A DNA stretch of 64,000 nt from Actinobacteria bacterium UBA2184 (GTDB lineage: Bacteria > Actinomycetota > Coriobacteriia > Anaerosomatales > Anaerosomataceae). The DNA is taken from contig DCVQ01000027.1 in the NCBI GenBank assembly GCA_002328745.1, forward strand, positions 3,753 through 67,752, read 5' to 3'. Positions 2,860-52,635 of this stretch are shown piece after piece; the first letter of the stretch is position 1; every line of letters begins with the position of its first letter. A program made the translations under genes and the position numbers. Under the pieces are notes generated by a model that was not told where the DNA came from, did not search any database, and worked only from the letters and a program-made list of their open reading frames with translations.

Positions 2860-2967
2860 GGGACGGGTATAGATAGGTGGTTGCCCGCGAGCGATCTCGC
2901 GGGTCAGCGAGGGTGCCATGAAACGCCGGGCTGAATCGGTCACCTGATGACCCGGCGCGGAGCGAAC

Positions 2968-2997
2968 GGTGAGACCGGCCTCAGGGCCGGTCTCACC
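2968..2997 (+). terminator. perfect 13-bp hairpin GGTGAGACCGGCC-tcag-GGCCGGTCTCACC followed by TCGTTTCGGG
   Basis: Read directly. It lies 109 nt after the 2859 stop, has a partial T-tract, and abuts the SD of the next gene. Confidence 0.45.
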
Positions 2998-3022
2998 TCG
3001 TTTCGGGAGGGAGCGTGCAGCG

Positions 3023-3403
3023 ATGAAGGCCGCTGCGATCGTGGTGTTCGTGTTCGTGGTGCTGTTGGCGGGCGTCGCCATCGGACAGGAGTACGTGCCG
3101 TGGGAGACCGGGGGCCAGATCTGCCCCGACCGGGTGCTCGCGGAGCGTCTGAGGTGCGGACTCGTGGTGGACGGGTCGTACCTTCCGTACTCGCCCGACG
3201 CCGAGTACGCGTTCGGCTGCATGATCGGCCAGATCTGCCCCGAGCGGGCGCTCGCCAGCCGGCTTGCCGCGGGCCCGGAGTACTTCGCCGAGTACCTGCC
3301 GTACACCGCGTACACCCACTACGCGCCGGATTGCGTGACGGGGCAGGTGTGCCCGGAGCGTGCGCTCGCCGAGCGCGTGGCGTGCGGGATGTGTGGACAC
3401 TAG
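3023..3403 (+). CDS. secreted Cys-rich repeat protein (hypothetical)
   Basis: 126 aa from ATG 3023 (GGGAGGGAG SD). Signal-like MKAAAIVVFVFVVLLAGVAIG. Three copies of GQ[IV]CP[DE]R.LA.R[LV]. 8 Cys in total. Confidence 0.6.
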   Translation: MKAAAIVVFVFVVLLAGVAIGQEYVPWETGGQICPDRVLAERLRCGLVVDGSYLPYSPDAEYAFGCMIGQICPERALASRLAAGPEYFAEYLPYTAYTHYAPDCVTGQVCPERALAERVACGMCGH

Positions 3404-5833: not shown

Positions 5834-6556
5834 GTGGCAGCGGTACCGTCCGACATGCCGGTCGTGAGGATCCGCGACCTCGTCAAGGTCTACGACACAG
5901 GAGAAGTGCCGTTCACCGCGCTCAAGGGCGTGGACCTCGACGTGTACTCGGGTGAGTTCATCGGCATCATCGGCAAGTCGGGGAGCGGCAAGACCACGCT
6001 CATCAACATGATCACCGGCATCGACCACCCCACCTCGGGCGAGGTCGTCATCGGCGACACGCCGGTTCACGCGCTCGGCGAGAACGCGCTCGCCAAGTGG
6101 CGCGGGCTCAACGTGGGCGTCGTGTTCCAGTTCTTCCAGCTGCTGCCTACGCTCACCATCCTCGAGAACGTGCTGCTCCCGATGGACTTCTGCTCCACGT
6201 ACCCGATGCGCGAGCGGGTTCCGCGTGCGATGGCCCTCCTCGAGGCCGTGGAGCTGGCCGATCAGGCCAACAAGTTGCCGGCGGCCCTCTCCGGCGGCCA
6301 GCAGCAGCGCGCGGCCATCGCGCGAGCGCTTGCCAACGACCCGCCGATACTCGCGGCCGACGAACCCACGGGCAACCTCGACTCGAAGACCGCCGAGGCG
6401 GTGTTCGGCCTGTTCGAGCGCCTGGTCGAGCAGCATAAGACCATCATCATGGTCACCCACGACAACGACCTCGCGTCGCGCGTGCGGCGGGCGCTCCACG
6501 TGGCCGACGGCGAGATCATCGAGGAGCGCGTGCACCGCGAACGGCATACGGGCTGA
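5834..6556 (+). CDS. ABC transporter ATP-binding protein (MacB/LolD-type)
   Basis: Walker [10 protein letters not shown], signature LSGGQQQR, Walker [10 protein letters not shown]-loop VTHD. GTG 5834 has GGGGGAG 5 nt upstream; the alternative is ATG 5855. The track start 5579 is an extension. Confidence 0.88.
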
Positions 6557-6560
6557 TGGC

Positions 6561-8945
6561 ATGAGACCGCGCTGGCGCAAGGTCTTCCGCGACCTCTTCT
6601 CGCACCGGTTCCGCACGATGCTGGTGGTGCTCTCGATCGCCATCGGCATCTTCGCGGTCGGCGTCGTGCTGGGCACGCGAGAGGTCCTGGTGCGCGAGTT
6701 CGATGTCGACTACCGATCGTCCTTCGCCGCGAACGTCACGTACTTCTCGGAGGACTTCGACGAGGACCTCGTCCGCCGGGCGGAGGCATCGCCCGGGGTG
6801 GCGGCGGCGCAGGCGCGCCGAAGCGCGACCGTGCGCTACCGATGGAACGGGAGCGCCGAGGATCGCACGCTCTCGCTCGAGGCGTTCAGGGACTACGACG
6901 ACATCAGGGTGGACAAGGTAGTCCCCGTCGGGAACGCCCAGTGGCCGCCCGGGCGTGGTGAGGTCGTGCTGGAGGCGGCGGCGAAGCAGGTCGGCGACTA
7001 CGCCGTCGGCGACGTGCTTCGAGTCGAGCGGGCCGATGGCGAGACCGTCGAGCTCCGCGTGGCGGGTTTCGCGCATGACATCAACGCGGTGCCAGCCCAG
7101 TTCGTGGGCTACGAGACGGGCTACGTCTCCTTCGACACGCTCGGGGATCTCGGCGAGGAGCCGGTGTACAACAGGCTCTCGCTGGTCTTTGCGGACGAGG
7201 ACATCTCCTGGGGCGACGCATCGCGCAAGGCGAGCGCGCTGCGGGAGGATCTTTTCGAGTCGGAGGGGCTGCTCGTTCGCTACACGAACGTTCCGGAGCC
7301 GGGCAGTCACTTCCTCGGCGACATCTTCAAGGCGGTCTCGCTTCTCCTGCTGGCCCTCGGCGTGCTCGCGCTGGGTCTCTCGGCATTCCTGGTGGTCAAC
7401 ACCATCTCGGCGATCATGGCGCAGCAGGTTCGCCAGGTCGGGATCATGAAGGCCGTTGGAGCGAGCGCGCTGCAGCTTGACTGGCTCTACGTGTTCACGG
7501 TTGCGGTGTACGGTGCGGCCGCAGTCGCGGTGGGCCTGCCGGCAGCCGCCGCGGGCGCTCGCTGGTTCACCGACTATGCCGCCGAGATACTCAACTTCCG
7601 GGTGAGCAGCTACTGGCTGCCGTGGTGGGTGGTGATCGTCGAGATCACGGTCGGGCTGCTCGTACCGCTCCTTGCCGCGGCCGGCCCGATCCGGCGGGGC
7701 GTGCGCATGAGCGTGGTGCGAGCGCTGAACGCAAGCGGCATGAGCGAAGGGAAGTTCGGCAACCGGCTTGCGGACAGGGTGCTGGGCGCGATTCGCGGTC
7801 TTCCGCGGCCTGTCGCGCTGTCACTGCGCAACACGTTCCGGCGCAAGGGGCGTCTCGCCCTCACGCTTTCCACGCTCACGCTCGCCTCGGCGGTGGTGAT
7901 ATCGGTCTGGAGCGTCCAGACGTCGATCGAGCGCACGGTCGACGATCTCGAATCGTGGTGGCAGTACAACGTGCAGATCTCGTTCGCGCTTCCGCTCGAT
8001 GCCGGGGCGGTCGAGGCCGAGGTTGCGGACGTGGCCGGGGTGGCCGAGACCGAGACCTGGCTGGGGGTGGGCGCGACCGTCATCCGGTCGGACGGCAGCG
8101 AGAACGAGTCGTTCAGCATGGTCGGGATGGATCCGGCAAGCGAGTTCGTCGGGCCGATCGTGGTGGAAGGGCGTTGGCTCGAGCCGGGCGACACCGATGC
8201 GGTCGTCGTGAACACCGACGCGCAGAACGAGGAGCCGTCACTCCGGGTCGGCAGTGTCGTCACATTCGACGTTCAGGGTGTCAGAGATACCTGGAAGGTC
8301 GTCGGTGTGGTGAAGGGCCAGCTCGGCGGCCCCGCCGTCTTCTGCGACGCCGGGCAGCTCGGCTCGCTGCTTGGCAATCCGGGCATCACCCGGCTTGTCG
8401 TGCGGGGCACGGACCCCGACCCCGACGCCGAGCAGGCCCTTCTGGAGGCGGTCGAGGACAGGCTCGTGGAGGGTGGTTACCAGGTCACCAACGCGCGAAC
8501 GCGCAGCGGTCTGTCCGATCAGCTGCGCGAGCAGCTCGGGATCCTGGTGGCGTTCCTGGTCATCATGGCGGTTCTGCTCTCGGCCGTCGGCGTGATCGGC
8601 CTCACCGGCACCATGACCATCAACGTGCTCGAGAGCACGCGCGAGATCGGCGTCATGCGCGCGACCGGCGCCCAGCATCGCTCCATCTACCAGATCTTCG
8701 TGACAGAGGGCATCGTCGTCGGAGCGATCGCGTGGGCGGCCGGGTCGGTGCTTTCGTATCCGTTGAGCCTCGGTCTGGTCCGCATCCTCGCGGAGGCCAT
8801 CGGGCTCCCTTTGAGCTATGGATTCTCGTGGGTCGGCGTGGCGGCGTGGCTCGGGATGATGCTGGCGATCTCGGGGATGGCGAGCATCGCTCCGGCCTTC
8901 CGCGCGTCGCAAGTGAGCGTGCGCGACGCCATCGCGTACGAGTGA
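6561..8945 (+). CDS. ABC transporter permease, FtsX/MacB-type (duplicated FtsX domain)
   Basis: 794 aa from ATG 6561, 4 nt after the ATPase stop. N-terminal [28 protein letters not shown], two 4-TM FtsX blocks and large extracytoplasmic loops. Confidence 0.85.
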
Positions 8946-46092: not shown

Positions 46093-46121
46093 TTGGGTGA
46101 ACTATCGATTCTTGGTACTAT
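46093..46121 (+). promoter_or_regulatory. candidate sigma70-type promoter (TTGGGT-17 nt-TACTAT)
   Basis: Read directly, in a lower-GC spacer about 50 nt upstream of ATG 46174. Confidence 0.35.
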
Positions 46122-46173
46122 CCGTGCGTTGTCCAGGTGGACTTCCTGCATCCTTCCGGCAAAGGAGCACTCA

Positions 46174-46731
46174 ATGGCGGCATGTCCCCGTGGGGCCGAC
46201 TGTGTCTTTCACCAGACCATCGAGCCCAGTGTCATCAAACGTGTCCGGTACGCGAGCGCGTACGTCTACTGCCGCGGGGGGCGGCACGAGGAGTGCGCGA
46301 TCCATAGCTGCCTCGTACGGGGCGAGCAGGTGTCCCGCAACCTGATGCCCGATGGAGCGATAGGAGACTACATGGATGAGCAGGCCGGCGCAGCGAAGCG
46401 TCGCTTCCTCGTGATCGAAGACTCTCCCGTGTTCGCTGCCCTTGCGGCGAGCACGCTCGCGTCCCACTTCGCCGGCGCCGAGATCGTGCGCCACTCGTCG
46501 TTCACGGCCGCGGCTGAAGATCTTCGCAGCGGCGATCACACCGCCGTGGTCTGCGGCTTCGGCCTTGGCGATGGCAAGACCGCCCATCACGTGCGCGAGC
46601 TCACCAGCGCTCCGATCGTCGTGCTCACCGGTCGCCCGGGCGAGATCGATGCGCCGCGCCGCTCGCAGGTGGTAGCGAAGAGCGCCGGGCCTGAAGCTCT
46701 GGCCGCGGCGCTCCGCGCAGTGCTCGCCTAG
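46174..46731 (+). CDS. Cys/His-rich N-terminal domain fused to a receiver-like domain lacking the phospho-acceptor Asp
   Basis: 185 aa from ATG 46174 (AAGGAG SD). CPRGADCVFH...YCRGGRHEECAIHSC, then FLVIEDS...AVVCGFGLGDG...VVLTG...VAKSAGP. Confidence 0.65.
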   Translation: MAACPRGADCVFHQTIEPSVIKRVRYASAYVYCRGGRHEECAIHSCLVRGEQVSRNLMPDGAIGDYMDEQAGAAKRRFLVIEDSPVFAALAASTLASHFAGAEIVRHSSFTAAAEDLRSGDHTAVVCGFGLGDGKTAHHVRELTSAPIVVLTGRPGEIDAPRRSQVVAKSAGPEALAAALRAVLA

Positions 46732-48135: not shown

Positions 48136-48164
48136 AAGGGGAGGGACCCTCGGGCCCTCCCCTT
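48136..48164 (-). terminator. hairpin AAGGGGAGGG-(a)CCCtcGGG-CCCTCCCCTT after the HAMP gene
   Basis: Read directly. It lies about 50-80 nt downstream of the TGA-TAA double stop at 48215. A second hairpin GGCCGACG-gggcgaag-CGTCGGCC is at 48175-48198. Confidence 0.5.
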
Positions 48165-48214
48165 GTTCGCACGCGGCCGACGGGGCGAAGCGTCGGCCCT
48201 CATCCGTACGGTTA

Positions 48215-49126
48215 TCAGCTGCCTGAGAGCTGCTTCAGCGTGGTCGAAACCACGTGGATGAAGTCCGAGAAGAACTTCTCGAAGGAGCCGATCTCGTCGT
48301 TCGTGCCGTCGGACACGAACTCCGCGCTGAAGTCGCCACCGGCGACCCGCATGGAGATGTCCTGCATGCTCTCGGTCATCCGGCGAAGGCGCCGTAGTAC
48401 GAGCAGGTCCATCATCATGCCGATGATCAGCGTCGAGACCAGCAGTGTGACACCCACCACGGCGAGCGTCGACAGCATCGACCTGTTCGCTCCGTCGGCC
48501 TGGGCCGACACGTCCTCGATGACGTACACAACGCCCAGGGCCTCATCGTCGGCGCCGTACACGGGGAAGACCGCATGCCCCTTGCTCGATGAGTCGGTGC
48601 TCCACTTGATGGTCCAGAAGTCACCCTCGCCGGTCATGCCCTCGTGACAGGTCTTCGTGCACGAACCGATCTCCACACCGATGGCCTGGCTGTTCTCCGA
48701 GACCTCGGTAGCGGGGCGCTCGAACTGCATCTTGTCCGCGGCCGCATCATCTGTCGCGAAGAGGAGGGCGTAGTTCTCGCGCTCTGCCCACGCCGAGCTC
48801 TCGCCGAGCTCCTCGCGCGCTGCCGCGTACGTGCCCTCGTCGGCAACGGCCTTGTCGAGCAGGAAGCCGTACTCGTCGCCGGTGACAGCCTTCATGCCCT
48901 CAAGGATGCGCTGCACTTCCCCGGGGTTCCCGACCGGATCGACCGCTACGCCCTCACCCTTGATCTGCTCCCATGCCGCGAGGCTTTCGACTCCGGCCTC
49001 CGCAGCCGTGGAGTCGATGCTCTTGGAGTACGACTGGTGAAGGTACACCACCACGGCTATCGCGCCCAGAAGATTCACGATAACCACCGTCGCCAGGATG
49101 CGCGTTCTCACTGACATGTTCTTCAT
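48215..49126 (-). CDS. membrane protein: extracytoplasmic CxxCH (haem c) sensor-like domain + TM + HAMP, no output domain
   Basis: 303 aa from ATG 49126 (alternatives 49180 and 49117). TM1, about 190 aa outside with the single motif CTKTCH (48644-48661), TM2, then a HAMP domain (RRLRRMTESMQDISMRVAGGDFSAEF...DEIGSFEKFF). Ends in a double stop. Confidence 0.75.
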   Translation of the reverse strand: MKNMSVRTRILATVVIVNLLGAIAVVVYLHQSYSKSIDSTAAEAGVESLAAWEQIKGEGVAVDPVGNPGEVQRILEGMKAVTGDEYGFLLDKAVADEGTYAAAREELGESSAWAERENYALLFATDDAAADKMQFERPATEVSENSQAIGVEIGSCTKTCHEGMTGEGDFWTIKWSTDSSSKGHAVFPVYGADDEALGVVYVIEDVSAQADGANRSMLSTLAVVGVTLLVSTLIIGMMMDLLVLRRLRRMTESMQDISMRVAGGDFSAEFVSDGTNDEIGSFEKFFSDFIHVVSTTLKQLSGS

Positions 49127-49196
49127 ACGTGCATTCGCCCCCTTGTTCTCGTTCCAACGCCGAATGGCGTGTTTGCCCAACTCTGTTGATGCGACT

Positions 49197-52184
49197 CTAC
49201 GGTGCCAATGTGTGACAACTCAGGCAGATGGATGGCTCGGGCACCGGGCTGCTGTCAGCGCTGCAGGCCGGAGACGTTGACGGCTGCTCGGTATCATCGG
49301 ATTGAGTCGCATCGCTCAGGACAGGTGCTGCTGTCCCTGAGATCTCCGTAGAAACCGCAGAACCGGCCTGCGTATCGGGGGGTGTGTTCGCTGCGATCGA
49401 TGCCGACAGGGTAGGCACGGGTCCTGCGGGGATCACGCACGAAGCCGACCGGCTCGCCGCAGTGCTGTGGCAGTTCGCGACGGATCCGTCGGTGCCGCCG
49501 CATGAGACGGTGAGATGTCCGCCAACGGTGTGACAGCCCGCCTCGGTGCATGCATGCGCGTCGACGGTCGTGGGCGTGTCCGGCGTCGGATCGGGGATGC
49601 TGCGGACATCGAGCGCGGAATAGCCTGGGGGCGGCGATGGGTTGTCATGACAACCGCAGGCACCCTCCTGGGGCAGTCCATCGTTGCCGATCTCAACGCC
49701 CGTGTGGACCGTGGCACTGTCGGGGTGGTAGGTGTCCGGAGGATCGGCCGTCGCCATGTGGCAACTGAGCGTCGGGTCGTTGCCGCCGCATCCGATGATC
49801 ATCGACGGTCCGCCGGCGACATGGCAGCCCGGCGTGCCGTAGCAGCCGCCCACGCCGCTATGGAGCGTCGACAGGCGCGTCGTGGTGTGGCAGCCGGCGG
49901 TGACACAGGTGCCGGGCGTCGGCACGTTGTCGGCGCTGTACTCCACGCCTATGTGGTGGTTCGGGTTCTTCGTGTGGTAGCTGATGCTGCGCAGGTGGCA
50001 GCTGAGTGCCGGGTCGGTGCCGCCGCATCCGATGATCATCGACGGTCCGCCGGCGACATGGCAGCCCGGCGTGCCGTAGCAGCCGCCCACGCCGCTATGG
50101 AGCGTCGACAGGCGCGTCGTGGTGTGGCAGCCGTCCTTCACGCAGGAGCCCGGCGTCGGCACGTTGGCCGTGCTGTACTCCACGCCTATGTGGTGGTTCG
50201 GGTTCTTCGTGTGGTAGCTGATGTTGCGCAGGTGACAGCTTAGGGCAGCGTTATCGGCGTTACCGCCGCAGCCCAGTACGCCGGTCGGCCCGCCCTCGAC
50301 GTGGCAGCCCGGGATCGCGCATCCGACCTCGTGGTGCGTTTCGTAGACGTTGACCGTGACATGACAGCCGTCTTTCACGCAGGAGCCCGGCGTCGGCACG
50401 TTGGCCGTGCTGTACTCCACGCCTACGTGCACGGTCGCGAAGTCGTCGTGCTTGTTGGCATCGCTCGCGGTGTGGCACGCCGGCGTCCCCGCGCCACCGC
50501 CGCACGTCATGTAGGTCGGACCTCCCGCAACGTGGCAGCCCGCCGTGTAGCAGACTCCGACCTCTTCGTGCAGATCGCGCACATCGGCGGTGGCGTGGCA
50601 TCCCGGTCTCACGCATCCGGTCTCAGATACCTGTCCGTCGTGGCCGATCTGCGTGGCTATGTGCGCCGCGTCAGCGGTCGCGTGGCGCGAACTCGCGGTG
50701 TGACACGAGGTGCCCGACTGGTCGTCGGTGCCGCCGCACGTCATCGTGCGCGATCCTCTGATGTCACCCGTGTTCGAGTGGCAGCCGCTGATGGTACAGC
50801 CGATCTCGGCGTGCAGGACGCGCACGTCCGCGGTCGTGTGGCAGCCCGGCTTCGCACAGCCCGTGGACGAGACGTGCCCCTCGTGGTCGATCTGAGTGGC
50901 CACGTGTGCACTGCCGATGGCACCGTGGATCGAGTCCCCGTGGCACGTCGCGCATGCCGCGGCGGTGTCGCTCGCTGGCCAGTCGCCCATGACTGCGGCG
51001 ACGGTCGTCTCGTTCTTGTTGTGGCAGCCGAGGCAGGTATCGCCAGCGATGACCGAGTTCCGCCGGGCGTGCTCGATCCCGATGTCCGTCGTGTGGCACG
51101 ATCCGCACGTCACGCTCACACCGCTCGTGCGATCGGTGTAGGTCGCCGATGCCTGCGAGCGGCTCTCCGGCGCATGCACGACATCGTCGTCGGTGTGGCT
51201 GTATTCGTCGTTGAGATAGTCCGGATGGCAGTTGCCCTCGCCGGTGCCGCACGCGGTGACGACCGGGGTCTTTGGCTCGGCCTCGAAGTCGTGGCATGCG
51301 GGCTCGCCCTCGGCCGCCGAACCCGAGCATGTGGCGGGCTTGTCCGGGTGGAGCGCGTGCAGGTCGTTGCCATCGTGGCATCCTGCGCCGGTCGTGCCGC
51401 AGCTTGCGGTGCCGCTTGCCTCGACCGAGCCGGAGATCACGTCGGAGGCGTGCATCGGCGCGCGCACCGTCTCTTGGTGGCAGTCCTCGCAGCGGTGGTC
51501 CTCCCAGTCGGAGAGGACCTGGTCGAGCGCCCCCGACTGCTCGTCGTTGTGGCACTCGACGCACCCGATCTCGGTGCCGTAGTCGCCTCCGTCGACCTCG
51601 TTCACCACGGAGTGCGCGGTCTTGAGATCGCGCGAGTGGCAATCGGCGCAGGTCGCCTTTGCTTCGCCGTCGGCCGCCGTCCTCACTACCTGTTCGAAGT
51701 CCGTGCCGAGGGCGGTGTGCAGCGATTCGCGGTAGTGTCCCTTGGGCCACGCGTCGGCGAGCGTCACGCAATCGGAGACGCCCTCCATACTGCCGTCGTG
51801 GCACCCGGTGCACTCGTGCTGATTCGGGGCGTGGCAGGGGATGCATCCGACGCCCGTGTAGTCGTGGCACACAGTGCACGCGGTGTCGGGATGGTACTTG
51901 TTGAAGTCGCTCAGGCCCTCATCGAACCCGTGGCAGCCGTCGCCCGAGTTCGTGCAGCCGCTCTCGCGACGCGCGCTGTAGTCGCTGGCGGAGGTGAAGG
52001 TGTGGACGGTCTCGGTGGGAGGGTTCCAGCCTGCGGCAAACGCAAGACCGCCGATCAGGACCACAGCGATCCCGATCTTGCCCTTGCGGGCCCTGATCCA
52101 CTGTGCGAGTCCCTCGCGAGCCGGCTGCGGCGTTCCGGCGCCGTAGGACGCCGTTCCGCCGCTGGGATGCTTCGTGCCCCTCAT
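49197..52184 (-). CDS. N-terminally anchored giant multihaem c-type cytochrome (10 CxxCH + 21 C-x(4-10)-CH motifs)
   Basis: 995 aa. TM anchor KIGIAVVLIGGLAFAAGW. Canonical motifs: CTVCH, CIPCH, CTGCH, CADCH, CVECH, CEDCH, CGSCH, CLGCH, CATCH, CLSCH. The C-terminal half consists of tandem modules. GGGGGG SD before ATG 52184. Confidence 0.85.
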   Translation of the reverse strand: MRGTKHPSGGTASYGAGTPQPAREGLAQWIRARKGKIGIAVVLIGGLAFAAGWNPPTETVHTFTSASDYSARRESGCTNSGDGCHGFDEGLSDFNKYHPDTACTVCHDYTGVGCIPCHAPNQHECTGCHDGSMEGVSDCVTLADAWPKGHYRESLHTALGTDFEQVVRTAADGEAKATCADCHSRDLKTAHSVVNEVDGGDYGTEIGCVECHNDEQSGALDQVLSDWEDHRCEDCHQETVRAPMHASDVISGSVEASGTASCGTTGAGCHDGNDLHALHPDKPATCSGSAAEGEPACHDFEAEPKTPVVTACGTGEGNCHPDYLNDEYSHTDDDVVHAPESRSQASATYTDRTSGVSVTCGSCHTTDIGIEHARRNSVIAGDTCLGCHNKNETTVAAVMGDWPASDTAAACATCHGDSIHGAIGSAHVATQIDHEGHVSSTGCAKPGCHTTADVRVLHAEIGCTISGCHSNTGDIRGSRTMTCGGTDDQSGTSCHTASSRHATADAAHIATQIGHDGQVSETGCVRPGCHATADVRDLHEEVGVCYTAGCHVAGGPTYMTCGGGAGTPACHTASDANKHDDFATVHVGVEYSTANVPTPGSCVKDGCHVTVNVYETHHEVGCAIPGCHVEGGPTGVLGCGGNADNAALSCHLRNISYHTKNPNHHIGVEYSTANVPTPGSCVKDGCHTTTRLSTLHSGVGGCYGTPGCHVAGGPSMIIGCGGTDPALSCHLRSISYHTKNPNHHIGVEYSADNVPTPGTCVTAGCHTTTRLSTLHSGVGGCYGTPGCHVAGGPSMIIGCGGNDPTLSCHMATADPPDTYHPDSATVHTGVEIGNDGLPQEGACGCHDNPSPPPGYSALDVRSIPDPTPDTPTTVDAHACTEAGCHTVGGHLTVSCGGTDGSVANCHSTAASRSASCVIPAGPVPTLSASIAANTPPDTQAGSAVSTEISGTAAPVLSDATQSDDTEQPSTSPACSADSSPVPEPSICLSCHTLAP
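49749..50222 (-). repeat. two tandem 237-nt (79-aa) coding repeat units inside the cytochrome gene
   Basis: 49782-49895 is identical to 50019-50132 (114 nt, compared by eye). The rest of the unit is near-identical. More diverged copies continue to about 50906. Confidence 0.85.
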
Positions 52185-52211
52185 GATGGCCCCCCGGAAG
52201 TTCGGCGACGC

Positions 52212-52415
52212 CTAGTCGAGTCTCAGTCCGAGTATGTCCTGGGCCGCCTGCTGCAGATTCCGAAGCTTCTCGGCGTCATCGGGATCTTCAGGCTTGATGA
52301 GCGTCACGATGAAACCTACGCGCATGGCGATGGCGCCGCGCGTCTTGAACACATCGAGGTTGTTGCGCTGAATGTGCTCCTCGATGCGTTGCGCGTAGTC
52401 GTAGAGCTTCCCCAT
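52212..52415 (-). CDS. 67-aa hypothetical protein, first gene of the cytochrome operon
   Basis: MGKLYDYAQRIEEHIQRNNLDVFKTRGAIAMRVGFIVTLIKPEDPDDAEKLRNLQQAAQDILGLRLD. GGAGGTGGGGA SD before ATG 52415. The stop lies 27 nt before the cytochrome start. Confidence 0.6.
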   Translation of the reverse strand: MGKLYDYAQRIEEHIQRNNLDVFKTRGAIAMRVGFIVTLIKPEDPDDAEKLRNLQQAAQDILGLRLD

Positions 52416-52635
52416 CGATCCCCACCTCCGCAGACCGGATGCATACATGTTCGGCATTCGGGCCCAAAATATTTAGCGAAACGCGCCAGCGCTGCATGCC
52501 GGAGCGCGTGCCTCCCCCGTACCCGCTAATAATCACCGAATCTCGGTCCCAGCGCTAGTGTGGGTGTTCACAAAGCCGAACCGTGGGGAGAAACGGCCCG
52601 GTGTGTGCGCGTGACCGCCGTGATACCGTGCTGCT

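Follow-up and report, generated by a model that had tools for sequence, protein, structure and literature searches.

Why should the gene of a giant multihaem cytochrome stand in one row with the genes of a membrane receptor that ends in a bare HAMP domain and of a protein of only 67 amino acids (aa), and do the three form one functional unit? The question is raised by a locus on contig DCVQ01000027.1 of Actinobacteria bacterium UBA2184, an uncultured actinobacterium from soil or groundwater, of which a stretch of 64,000 nt with a GC content of ~69%, hereafter called the window, was analysed. The minus strand of the window encodes the small protein, the cytochrome (995 aa) and the receptor (303 aa) in this order. 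The first-pass annotation of this DNA read the trio as a candidate self-contained module of sensing and of redox or extracellular electron transfer. A conserved unit was indeed found, but its core is the pair of the small protein and a receptor made of Cache, transmembrane (TM) and HAMP parts only, and this pair also occurs without haem or cytochrome; the cytochrome gene is a variable associated gene. The word self-contained had to be dropped, since no gene for an enzymatic output, a quinol oxidase or cytochrome maturation is present in or beside the unit. The window contains no other multihaem open reading frame (ORF).

Conservation of the locus and its core

In total 67 loci were compared, 63 from a scan of one genome per species and four look-up loci (L001-L004), with tblastn, motif counts in ORFs and a hidden Markov model of the small protein. 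The trio is syntenic in about 30 uncultured Coriobacteriia or Actinomycetota genomes. Of the 35 haem-type loci that could be judged, 31 have a giant multihaem ORF as the next gene upstream of the haem-HAMP receptor gene, and the small gene was found in 30 of 38 haem-type loci; six of the eight loci without it are truncated contigs. The small gene is usually placed 5' of the cytochrome gene, sometimes between the cytochrome and receptor genes, and once inverted downstream. Gene order is retained with identical flanks in L001 and with unrelated flanks in L003 and L004, and because the block recurs where the flanking genes differ, a chance neighbourhood is excluded. The receptor had 114 matches with 42-96% identity, the full-length ones nearly all of 302-312 aa, and all 114 came from uncultured Coriobacteriia or Actinomycetota assemblies. 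On 23 public contigs a gene is called whose 67-aa product is identical, and samples with the identical gene include ERZ27315071 and JGI 3300002703; public gene calls for identical or near-identical proteins likewise give 67, 995 and 303 aa. In locus L037 the small gene has left a 28-residue remnant (1589-1672) immediately 5' of the cytochrome gene, while an intact copy (6520-6708) is found past the receptor gene, on the other strand; the gene has thus been rearranged locally without leaving the cluster.

Another 25 loci (L043-L067), from Coriobacteriia, Anaeromyxobacter and other Myxococcota, encode haem-less receptors of 390-405 aa, which share 24-34% identity with residues 70-301 of the window receptor (tblastn, E = 1e-13 to 8e-28); one partial match reaches 42% identity over residues 186-301. 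These receptors consist of dCache_3, TM and HAMP, where the chain ends. They have no Cys motif and, few exceptions aside, no cytochrome gene nearby. The Anaeromyxobacter receptor matches Pfam dCache_3 with E = 1.2e-17. The small gene is present in 20 of the 25 loci, immediately upstream of the receptor gene except in L045, where it is just downstream. In the cultured Anaeromyxobacter sp. PSR-1 (L057) it is located 16 nt upstream of the haem-less receptor gene. The window differs in this adjacency, as its cytochrome gene separates the small gene from the receptor gene.

The associated gene also varies among the haem-type loci. In four of them (L015, L017, L034 and L038) the small gene adjoins the haem-type receptor gene, which is followed by the gene of a lipoprotein with two rhodanese domains, and in L017 and L034 there is no cytochrome within 8 kb. 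Judged from these rhodanese-type loci and from L068 (see below), where only the small gene is retained, the sensor pair is portable, and the extracytoplasmic protein that goes with it may be one of redox or of sulfur chemistry. The tandem-rhodanese lipoprotein of L017 (8971-9993) has CYTGHT loops, and so have those of L015, L034 and L038. Downstream in L017, L034 and L038 are ThiF/MoaD-like and aldehyde:ferredoxin-oxidoreductase-type ORFs, named by their resemblance to annotated genes of L068.

A search of 1.84 billion representative proteins with the small-protein profile gave only 115 relatives, mostly stand-alone proteins of 65-70 aa. The longer relatives carry the small domain at the C-terminus. 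Among them are fusions with Roadblock/LC7 (P0265 with 24.1 bits, above the Pfam cut-off, and P0213 and P0239 with weaker matches), a protein in which it follows FapA_N and FapA (P0296), and two proteins (P0259, P0283) that begin with another domain and have the small domain twice in tandem. In three of the four cases looked up (L074, L075 and L076), the next gene after the fusion encodes a dCache_3-HAMP-only receptor. Where a genome has both receptor types, each receptor has a small paralog of its own beside it, and the identity between the two paralogs is 42-44%; haem-associated small proteins of different genomes share a mean identity of 64%. The nearest neighbour of a small protein shares its receptor type in 46 of 51 cases, and the distances of small proteins and receptors correlate with r = 0.7-0.85 (mirror-tree). 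Because of this adjacency across phyla, the co-duplication, and the fusions followed by adjacency, we consider that the small domain is probably the cognate cytoplasmic partner of the receptor, with which it would be in physical contact. In other bacteria it would serve to link Roadblock/LC7 or FapA to haem-less members of this receptor family.

Haem-type and haem-less receptors also share, across phyla, a cytoplasmic N-terminal tail of the form M(K)xxSI(R/K)xK(I/L) (window 49100-49126, minus strand; L043-L067 and L074-L076). Such a conserved tail ahead of the first TM helix is unusual, and it may be part of a partner-docking surface.

Domain structure and haem motif of the receptor

The predicted receptor starts inside the cell with TM1, followed by a single extracytoplasmic Cache-like domain with the CX3CH motif, TM2 and a HAMP domain, after whose AS2 the chain ends at residue 303. 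This architecture is matched with the sensing role which the annotation had given to the protein. The AlphaFold2 (AF2) model built from the family alignment has a predicted local distance difference test (pLDDT) score of 86, and shows a TM helix running into a long stalk helix, a five-stranded α/β domain, TM2 and a helix-connector-helix. Foldseek gave one strong match to this model, a WalK model (E = 1.2e-7), and then Cache/PAS sensors such as erWalK, DctB, CitA and TlpC at E ~0.04-0.14. Basic residues lie on the cytoplasmic side of both TM helices, in the N-terminal tail and after TM2, and this places the α/β domain outside the cell, where c-type haem is attached.

Only HAMP was matched by Pfam in the window receptor, with 18.7 bits (E = 0.0023), below the cut-off of 25 bits; among the 31 family members 28 match, the best with E = 4.7e-5. 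In NCBIfam it is the TM2/HAMP stretch of CtpM, WalK and SiaA that is matched. In the AF2 model this stretch forms a helix (207-262), a connector and a second helix (278-301), and no other region is conserved as strongly between haem-type and haem-less paralogs as its sequence AGGDF...DEIGxFExF. The C-terminal region is very probably a HAMP domain. PF11845 (DUF3365/Tll0287) matched none of the 31 family members at E <= 1, and the receptor profile matched no PDB chain at E <= 1, though the set includes GSU0582 and Tll0287 (as described in PMC12889525).

The protein had been called a haem-c/HAMP membrane protein. Both parts of this name were found, but the haem-type motif is CTKTCH (C156-x3-C160-H161), a CX3CH and not the canonical CXXCH. 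In the 31 aligned sequences C156, C160, H161 and W171 are invariant, and so are G-x-C-x3-C-H and the HAMP core AGGDF...DEIGxFE. The motif lies in a 23-residue insertion, which is missing from 16 of 16 aligned haem-less paralogs. In the AF2 model the insertion is between strands 147-153 (β3) and 173-190 (β4), with a short helix (158-161) over the motif; its confidence is the lowest of the receptor, which is expected if a cofactor is absent from the prediction. CX3CH and CX4CH are described haem-binding motifs (PMC11492766), and the site may hold a covalent c-type haem with H161 as proximal ligand. Position 184 is Arg in haem-less paralogs and His in 90% of the haem-type proteins, so that H184 may be a candidate for the distal ligand. 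Haem-type receptors also have no counterpart of the membrane-distal Cache module (~130 residues) of the haem-less paralogs. As far as can be read from the alignments, the window receptor is a derived paralog, which lost the distal Cache module and gained the CX3CH insertion.

The multihaem cytochrome

The giant cytochrome of the annotation contains 32 Cys...Cys-His sites, though only 10 of them are canonical CxxCH; nine are Cx4CH and 13 have other spacings (x5, x6, x8-10, and one x1). It has 71 His and 67 Cys, with 39 His beyond the sites. A single N-terminal TM segment (residues 36-54), with basic residues ahead of it, serves as signal-anchor. The conserved core (about residues 77-495) includes 16 sites, all invariant in 17-18 of 18 orthologs, among them three Cx6CH, two Cx10CH and two Cx4CH. 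After the core comes a variable region of 79-aa units with three Cys...Cys-His sites each, and Tandem Repeats Finder detected in the gene a 237-nt repeat with 84-93% matches. Because the copies are 84-93% identical, the duplication of this three-site module is recent. Closely related public contigs encode 916-aa and 995-aa versions, which suggests a polymorphism of repeat number. The protein ends with a linker rich in Ser, Ala, Pro and Thr and a terminal CxxCH. From its sequence, it would be a membrane-anchored multihaem cytochrome with about 32 predicted haem sites.

The window cytochrome had no Pfam match, and against all PDB chains, with OcwA (6I5B) and NrfA included as comparison, every E was at least 0.19. 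A public-contig product of the same length and position has a faint precomputed match to Cytochrome_C7 (PF14522). The published list of haem motifs includes CX3CH, CX4CH, CX11CH, CX15CH and CX17CH among its entries, and does not list x5, x6 and x8-10 (PMC11492766); because these spacings are off the list, the true haem count is uncertain. Sites of the unlisted spacings would be either new attachment motifs, perhaps in need of a special lyase, or non-haem sites. The second possibility leads to a rather unlikely alternative: the 995-aa protein would be a cytochrome in part, a shorter haem chain joined to structural Cys-rich repeats, in which many x5-x10 sites bind other metals or form disulfides. 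It agrees with the 22 non-canonical sites out of 32, with the unlisted spacings and with the missing Pfam match of the window protein. However, the x6 and x10 sites are invariant together with their His in 17-18 of 18 orthologs, and the 39 further His are available as distal ligands. From general knowledge, three sites per 79 aa fit triheme modules of the c7/c3 type, in line with the faint PF14522 matches. Spacings longer than those in dispute, CX11CH, CX15CH and CX17CH, are already described (PMC11492766).

In relatives a second cytochrome with eight or nine CxxCH is found beside the giant one, at 1410-4484 in L004 and as similar ORFs in L013, L020, L021, L025, L027, L030, L032 and L035. That of L004 (1024 aa), the only one of these ORFs tested, matches OcwA (6I5B, E = 1.7e-34) and carries CW_binding_2 repeats. 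Cultured members of OPB41/Anaerosomatales reduced Fe(III) and encode 17-18 multihaem cytochromes (PMC9686372). Because of the OcwA-like neighbour in relatives and the Fe(III)-reducing cultured members of OPB41, a role of the giant cytochrome in electron export is well motivated.

Comparison with known systems

An output-less Cache_heme-HAMP (CHH) receptor of Pseudomonas azotoformans binds a Ser/Thr kinase encoded in its operon with nanomolar affinity. This PknB-like kinase has two C-terminal helical bundles of ~50 residues with an IGP[LI]AR motif, each touching one HAMP subunit, and nitric oxide (NO) on the haem enhances phosphorylation of HAMP (10.64898/2026.05.25.727664, a 2026 preprint). 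Like it, the window receptor has a single extracytoplasmic Cache domain with a haem-c motif, two TM helices, a HAMP domain without output and a partner encoded in the operon. The partner is helical like the kinase modules, with 67 aa here, and in some relatives it has two tandem copies or is a C-terminal tether. Unlike the CHH partner it is not a kinase, and no gene of a Ser/Thr protein kinase (STPK) or PP2C is nearby: a kinase gene was found neither among the neighbours in the window (small protein, cytochrome, DEAD-box helicase and RlmKL) nor in the gene tables of L001, L003 and L004. The window receptor is moreover not a DUF3365 member, has CX3CH in place of CXXCH, belongs to the phylum Actinomycetota, and has a giant multihaem cytochrome added to its operon. 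In our reading it would work like a CHH receptor without belonging to the CHH family.

Membrane sensors of the Af1503 type also have a HAMP domain without catalytic output, as in the window receptor. The conservons (CvnA-D) are sets of a sensor with Roadblock/LC7 signalling proteins, which are echoed by the Roadblock fusions of the small domain. Unlike conservons, the window locus has no GTPase, DUF742 or histidine-kinase-like ATPase.

A 2026 preprint (PMC12889525) reclassified the DUF3365/Tll0287 family (PF11845, including GSU0582 and GSU0935) as sCache_heme, a Cache fold in which a short helix and a CXXCH of 99% conservation are placed in a β3-β4 insertion. Few if any members are reported from Actinomycetota, and those joined to signalling modules act as sensors of NO. 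The window receptor shares with it the Cache fold with a short β3-β4 insertion, a small helix and a Cys-Cys-His motif, and the apparent origin by a short motif-bearing fragment inserted into an existing Cache scaffold. It differs in that its family has no PF11845 match and has the motif CX3CH, and that its parent scaffold is the membrane-proximal module of the dCache_3-HAMP-only family. Because of the missing PF11845 match, the CX3CH motif and the visible ancestry in the dCache_3 pair, the haem acquisition of the window receptor looks independent of sCache_heme, as a second origin.

OcwA, a terminal reductase on the surface of Thermincola potens (6I5B), and the OPB41 cytochromes are, like the window protein, membrane- or wall-associated multihaem cytochromes of monoderm bacteria (PMC9686372). 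The 995-aa protein, however, has no significant match to OcwA or to another cytochrome of solved structure, most of its sites are non-canonical, and the window has no OcwA-like gene.

It had been stated that no system of this composition was described. This is no longer fully true, as haem-c Cache domains and output-less Cache_heme-HAMP receptors with a docked partner appeared in 2026 preprints (PMC12889525; 10.64898/2026.05.25.727664). New here are the undescribed partner family, the apparently convergent haem acquisition and the link to cytochromes of extracellular electron transfer.

Proposed mechanism and alternatives

We propose a haem-based extracytoplasmic redox or ligand sensor, which signals via a HAMP-docking adaptor and shares its operon with an electron-export wire, and we regard this account as modestly probable. 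It begins with the three genes, which are arranged head to tail and form a conserved block in OPB41-like Coriobacteriia. The cytochrome, judged from its motifs, its topology and homologous clusters, would be exported and anchored by its N-terminal helix, and with up to about 32 covalent haems would form a wire that leads from the membrane across the Gram-positive wall; its neighbour in relatives would be a nonahaem terminal reductase, similar to OcwA and provided with cell-wall-binding repeats. The receptor, presumably a dimer, has the fold of a single Cache domain, predicted to be outside the cell, and would carry a c-type haem on C156-x3-C160-H161 with H184 as possible distal ligand. Reduction or oxidation of this haem by the neighbouring cytochrome network, or its binding of NO or sulfur species, would cause a change that is transmitted through TM2 to the HAMP four-helix bundle. 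Adjacency, co-duplication, fusions and the precedent of the CHH kinase suggest that the 67-aa protein docks on the cytoplasmic face of the receptor, and its binding, release or conformation might relay the signal, most plausibly as feedback on the capacity of electron export.

Several observations weigh against this account. Known haem Cache domains have a CXXCH that is 99% conserved, unlike the CX3CH found here, and the attachment of haem to CX3CH is what we infer. The contact of the small protein with HAMP is likewise a presumed one, and the model names no downstream target. Partial correlations of the mirror-tree do not favour HAMP over the sensor region, so they indicate co-divergence only and no specific interface. 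Two haem-type loci with adequate flank (L027 and L031) have no small gene, and the Roadblock fusion of L073, on a short contig, is followed by a convergent protease gene and no receptor gene. In L068 (GCA_001714665.1, 8001-8204) only the small gene is found between rlmKL and the helicase region, and neither a receptor nor a cytochrome is encoded within 8 kb of it, so that it has either lost its partners or can act on its own. Co-transcription of the trio is presumed from its spacing alone. Finally, four relatives have the haem receptor with rhodanese in place of the cytochrome, and therefore something other than the redox state of the wire could be the signal.

This last point leads to an alternative that shares with our account everything except the signal: the gene block, the wire, the haem-bearing Cache domain and the docking adaptor. 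The receptor would be a sensor of a gas or small ligand (NO, perhaps sulfide or polysulfide), and the cytochrome or rhodanese would be the detoxifying or respiratory enzyme under its control. The predicted haem site, between β3 and β4, is also that of those NO-binding sCache_heme domains which are joined to signalling modules (PMC12889525), in the CHH receptor it is NO and not the redox state that alters the output, and the rhodanese-linked variant points to sulfur chemistry. We still consider it unlikely. The near-invariant His184 could give a six-coordinate bis-His haem, typical of electron transfer or redox sensing; the receptor has no DUF3365 homology; and a conduit of ~32 haems with an OcwA-like reductase of Fe(III) type in relatives suggests respiration of metals or electrodes over NO turnover.

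Quite improbable, in our judgement, is that the receptor is a membrane-anchored monohaem electron carrier or assembly partner which feeds the wire from the membrane, with a vestigial HAMP domain. It is true that the receptor gene nearly always adjoins the cytochrome gene, that the haem motif faces outward, that polar residues specific to the haem type are in or at the end of TM1 (N18, H30), and that no other product of the operon is a candidate for the input of electrons. But HAMP is the most conserved part of the receptor, also in comparison with the haem-less paralogs, which argues against a vestige. The haem-type receptor is paired with rhodanese and no cytochrome in four genomes, and it retains a small cytosolic partner that would be of no evident use to an electron carrier. 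From general knowledge of NrfH/CymA-type proteins, a single haem in a Cache fold off the membrane is no known design of a quinol oxidase.

The AF2 model of the small protein (pLDDT 96.5) has three helices (3-17, 22-33 and 48-62), and a helix of the family has the conserved sequence FKTRGxIAxxxGF. No Pfam or NCBIfam match was found, and none to HTH (helix-turn-helix) even at E <= 10; nothing relevant came from the PDB with its sequence profile. In the PDB searches with the three proteins, matches to designed TIM barrels were discarded as repeats of a short DPD-like string. By Foldseek it resembles the N-terminal helical subdomain of H-NOX (residues ~1-65; Nostoc H-NOX and sGC β; E = 0.1-0.4, TM-score 0.50-0.58, 19-24% identity) and Xre/C-protein HTH domains (TM-score ~0.5, E >= 0.2), in both cases without significance. 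As all Foldseek E-values were at least 0.1, neither assignment was adopted. The family has a mean net charge of -1.4 and a conserved acidic PDDPDD loop, and these, together with the use of the domain as C-terminal appendage, make the role of a DNA-binding regulator unlikely. That the small protein is an HTH-like regulator of the operon without direct contact to the receptor, as the HTH resemblance, the place of its gene first in the operon next to the promoter region and its persistence alone beside rlmKL in L068 could suggest, is very improbable in view of the acidity, of HTH matches missing from both family databases, of H-NOX scoring at least equally, of the domain's occurrence in Roadblock/LC7, FapA and tandem-copy proteins and in receptor context, and of an upstream region with no conserved palindromic operator.

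Gene organization and neighbouring features

The coordinates of the locus are given in Table 1. The gaps within the trio are 27 nt and 70 nt (16 nt with the TTG start of the receptor), and purine-rich strings like a Shine-Dalgarno (SD) sequence precede the three ATGs (GGAGGTG, GGGGGG and AAGGGGG). The short gaps on one strand, the SD of each gene, the less GC-rich divergent spacer and the double stop with two hairpins had all been described before and are confirmed here. The last gene had also been noted as less GC-rich than its surroundings. Its GC content is indeed 0.633, but a check of GC by codon position gave no sign of an island: it is low through codon positions 1 and 2, while GC at third positions (GC3), 0.862, is typical of the window. 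GC3 of the trio genes is coding-type (0.79, 0.84 and 0.86; other genes of the window, 0.875 +/- 0.032), so a foreign-island origin was rejected and the low GC of the receptor gene is attributed to amino-acid composition.

Table 1. Features of the three-gene locus, with positions counted from the first base of the window.
Feature	Position	Strand	Remarks
Small-protein gene	52212-52415	minus	67 aa from ATG; alternative start at 52457 gives 81 aa
Multihaem cytochrome gene	49197-52184	minus	995 aa
Receptor gene	48215-49126	minus	303 aa from ATG (start used by all orthologs); TTG alternative at 49180
HAMP domain, receptor residues 244-303	48218-48397	minus	no output domain beyond
CX3CH insertion, 23 residues, receptor residues 154-176	48599-48667	minus	GSCTKTCHEGMTGEGDFWTIKWS
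Tandem repeat inside cytochrome gene	49758-50429	minus	237 nt (79 aa), 2.8 copies
Divergent spacer between small gene (minus) and rlmKL (plus)	52416-52635		220 nt; GC 0.618 (window 0.688)
Two GC-rich hairpins past the TGATAA double stop	48137-48198	minus	likely transcript end

The two hairpins (48175-48198 and 48137-48163) fold with -56 kcal/mol (z = -4.25), and none of 200 shuffles was as stable. They would act as terminator, though without a trailing U-tract. Past them is the gene of a DEAD-box RhlE-like helicase. The spacer on the other side, across which rlmKL is divergent, presumably holds the promoter of the operon; a scan of it for the sigma-70 consensus gave no site, and an alignment of the regions upstream of the small gene from 15 loci gave no conserved palindromic operator. 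A string TGCCGAA/TGCCGAG lies ~35-45 nt 5' of the small-gene start (window ~52440-52452, minus strand). It recurs in L005, L006, L017, L034, L038 and L068, whose spacers are otherwise unalignable, and may be a promoter or operator element. At 52474-52488 (minus) the spacer has a terminator-like hairpin with a T-rich run; three such sites were counted in the region and 1.8 in shuffles, so this may be chance.

Two other features of the window may be mentioned. An ORF of 212 aa at 46093-46731 (plus), convergent with the helicase gene, is rich in Cys and His in its N-terminal part and weakly resembles a receiver in its C-terminal part (matches to EpsW and CreB of NCBIfam, E ~0.03-0.05); it is 55-60% identical in relatives, where it tracks the helicase gene and not the trio. 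A full-model c-di-GMP-II-GAG riboswitch aptamer (RF03169, 55.1 bits; gathering score 40) is at 2902-2989 (plus), just ahead of or overlapping the start of the ORF at 2951-3403.

Significance

On a wider scale, the small-protein family and the Cache-TM-HAMP-only receptors may constitute an unrecognised two-gene signalling system of Actinomycetota and Myxococcota, in which a stand-alone HAMP domain docks a helical adaptor that is free, duplicated, or fused to Roadblock/LC7 or FapA. Haem would have been gained independently through the 23-residue CX3CH insertion in OPB41-like Coriobacteriia, and the receptor built there into operons of wall-spanning cytochromes for direct redox read-out. We put this forward tentatively, as conceivable and not yet as probable.

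If the many conserved long-spaced sites of the cytochrome hold haem, haem would be attached to a wider set of motifs than is known so far, and one would have to ask by which lyase this is done. If the CX3CH motif of the receptor binds haem, the Cache fold would have recruited haem c twice, independently and at one and the same structural site, and sensors would clearly have converged. For the question of how HAMP receptors without output signal, the locus offers a compact partner domain of 67 residues with natural fusions, and a haem-less version is present in the cultured Anaeromyxobacter sp. PSR-1. Little is known, above all for Gram-positive lineages, of how bacteria that respire minerals or electrodes sense the load of their extracellular electron pathway, and this locus is a concrete candidate, with a putative haem sensor in the operon of the wire.

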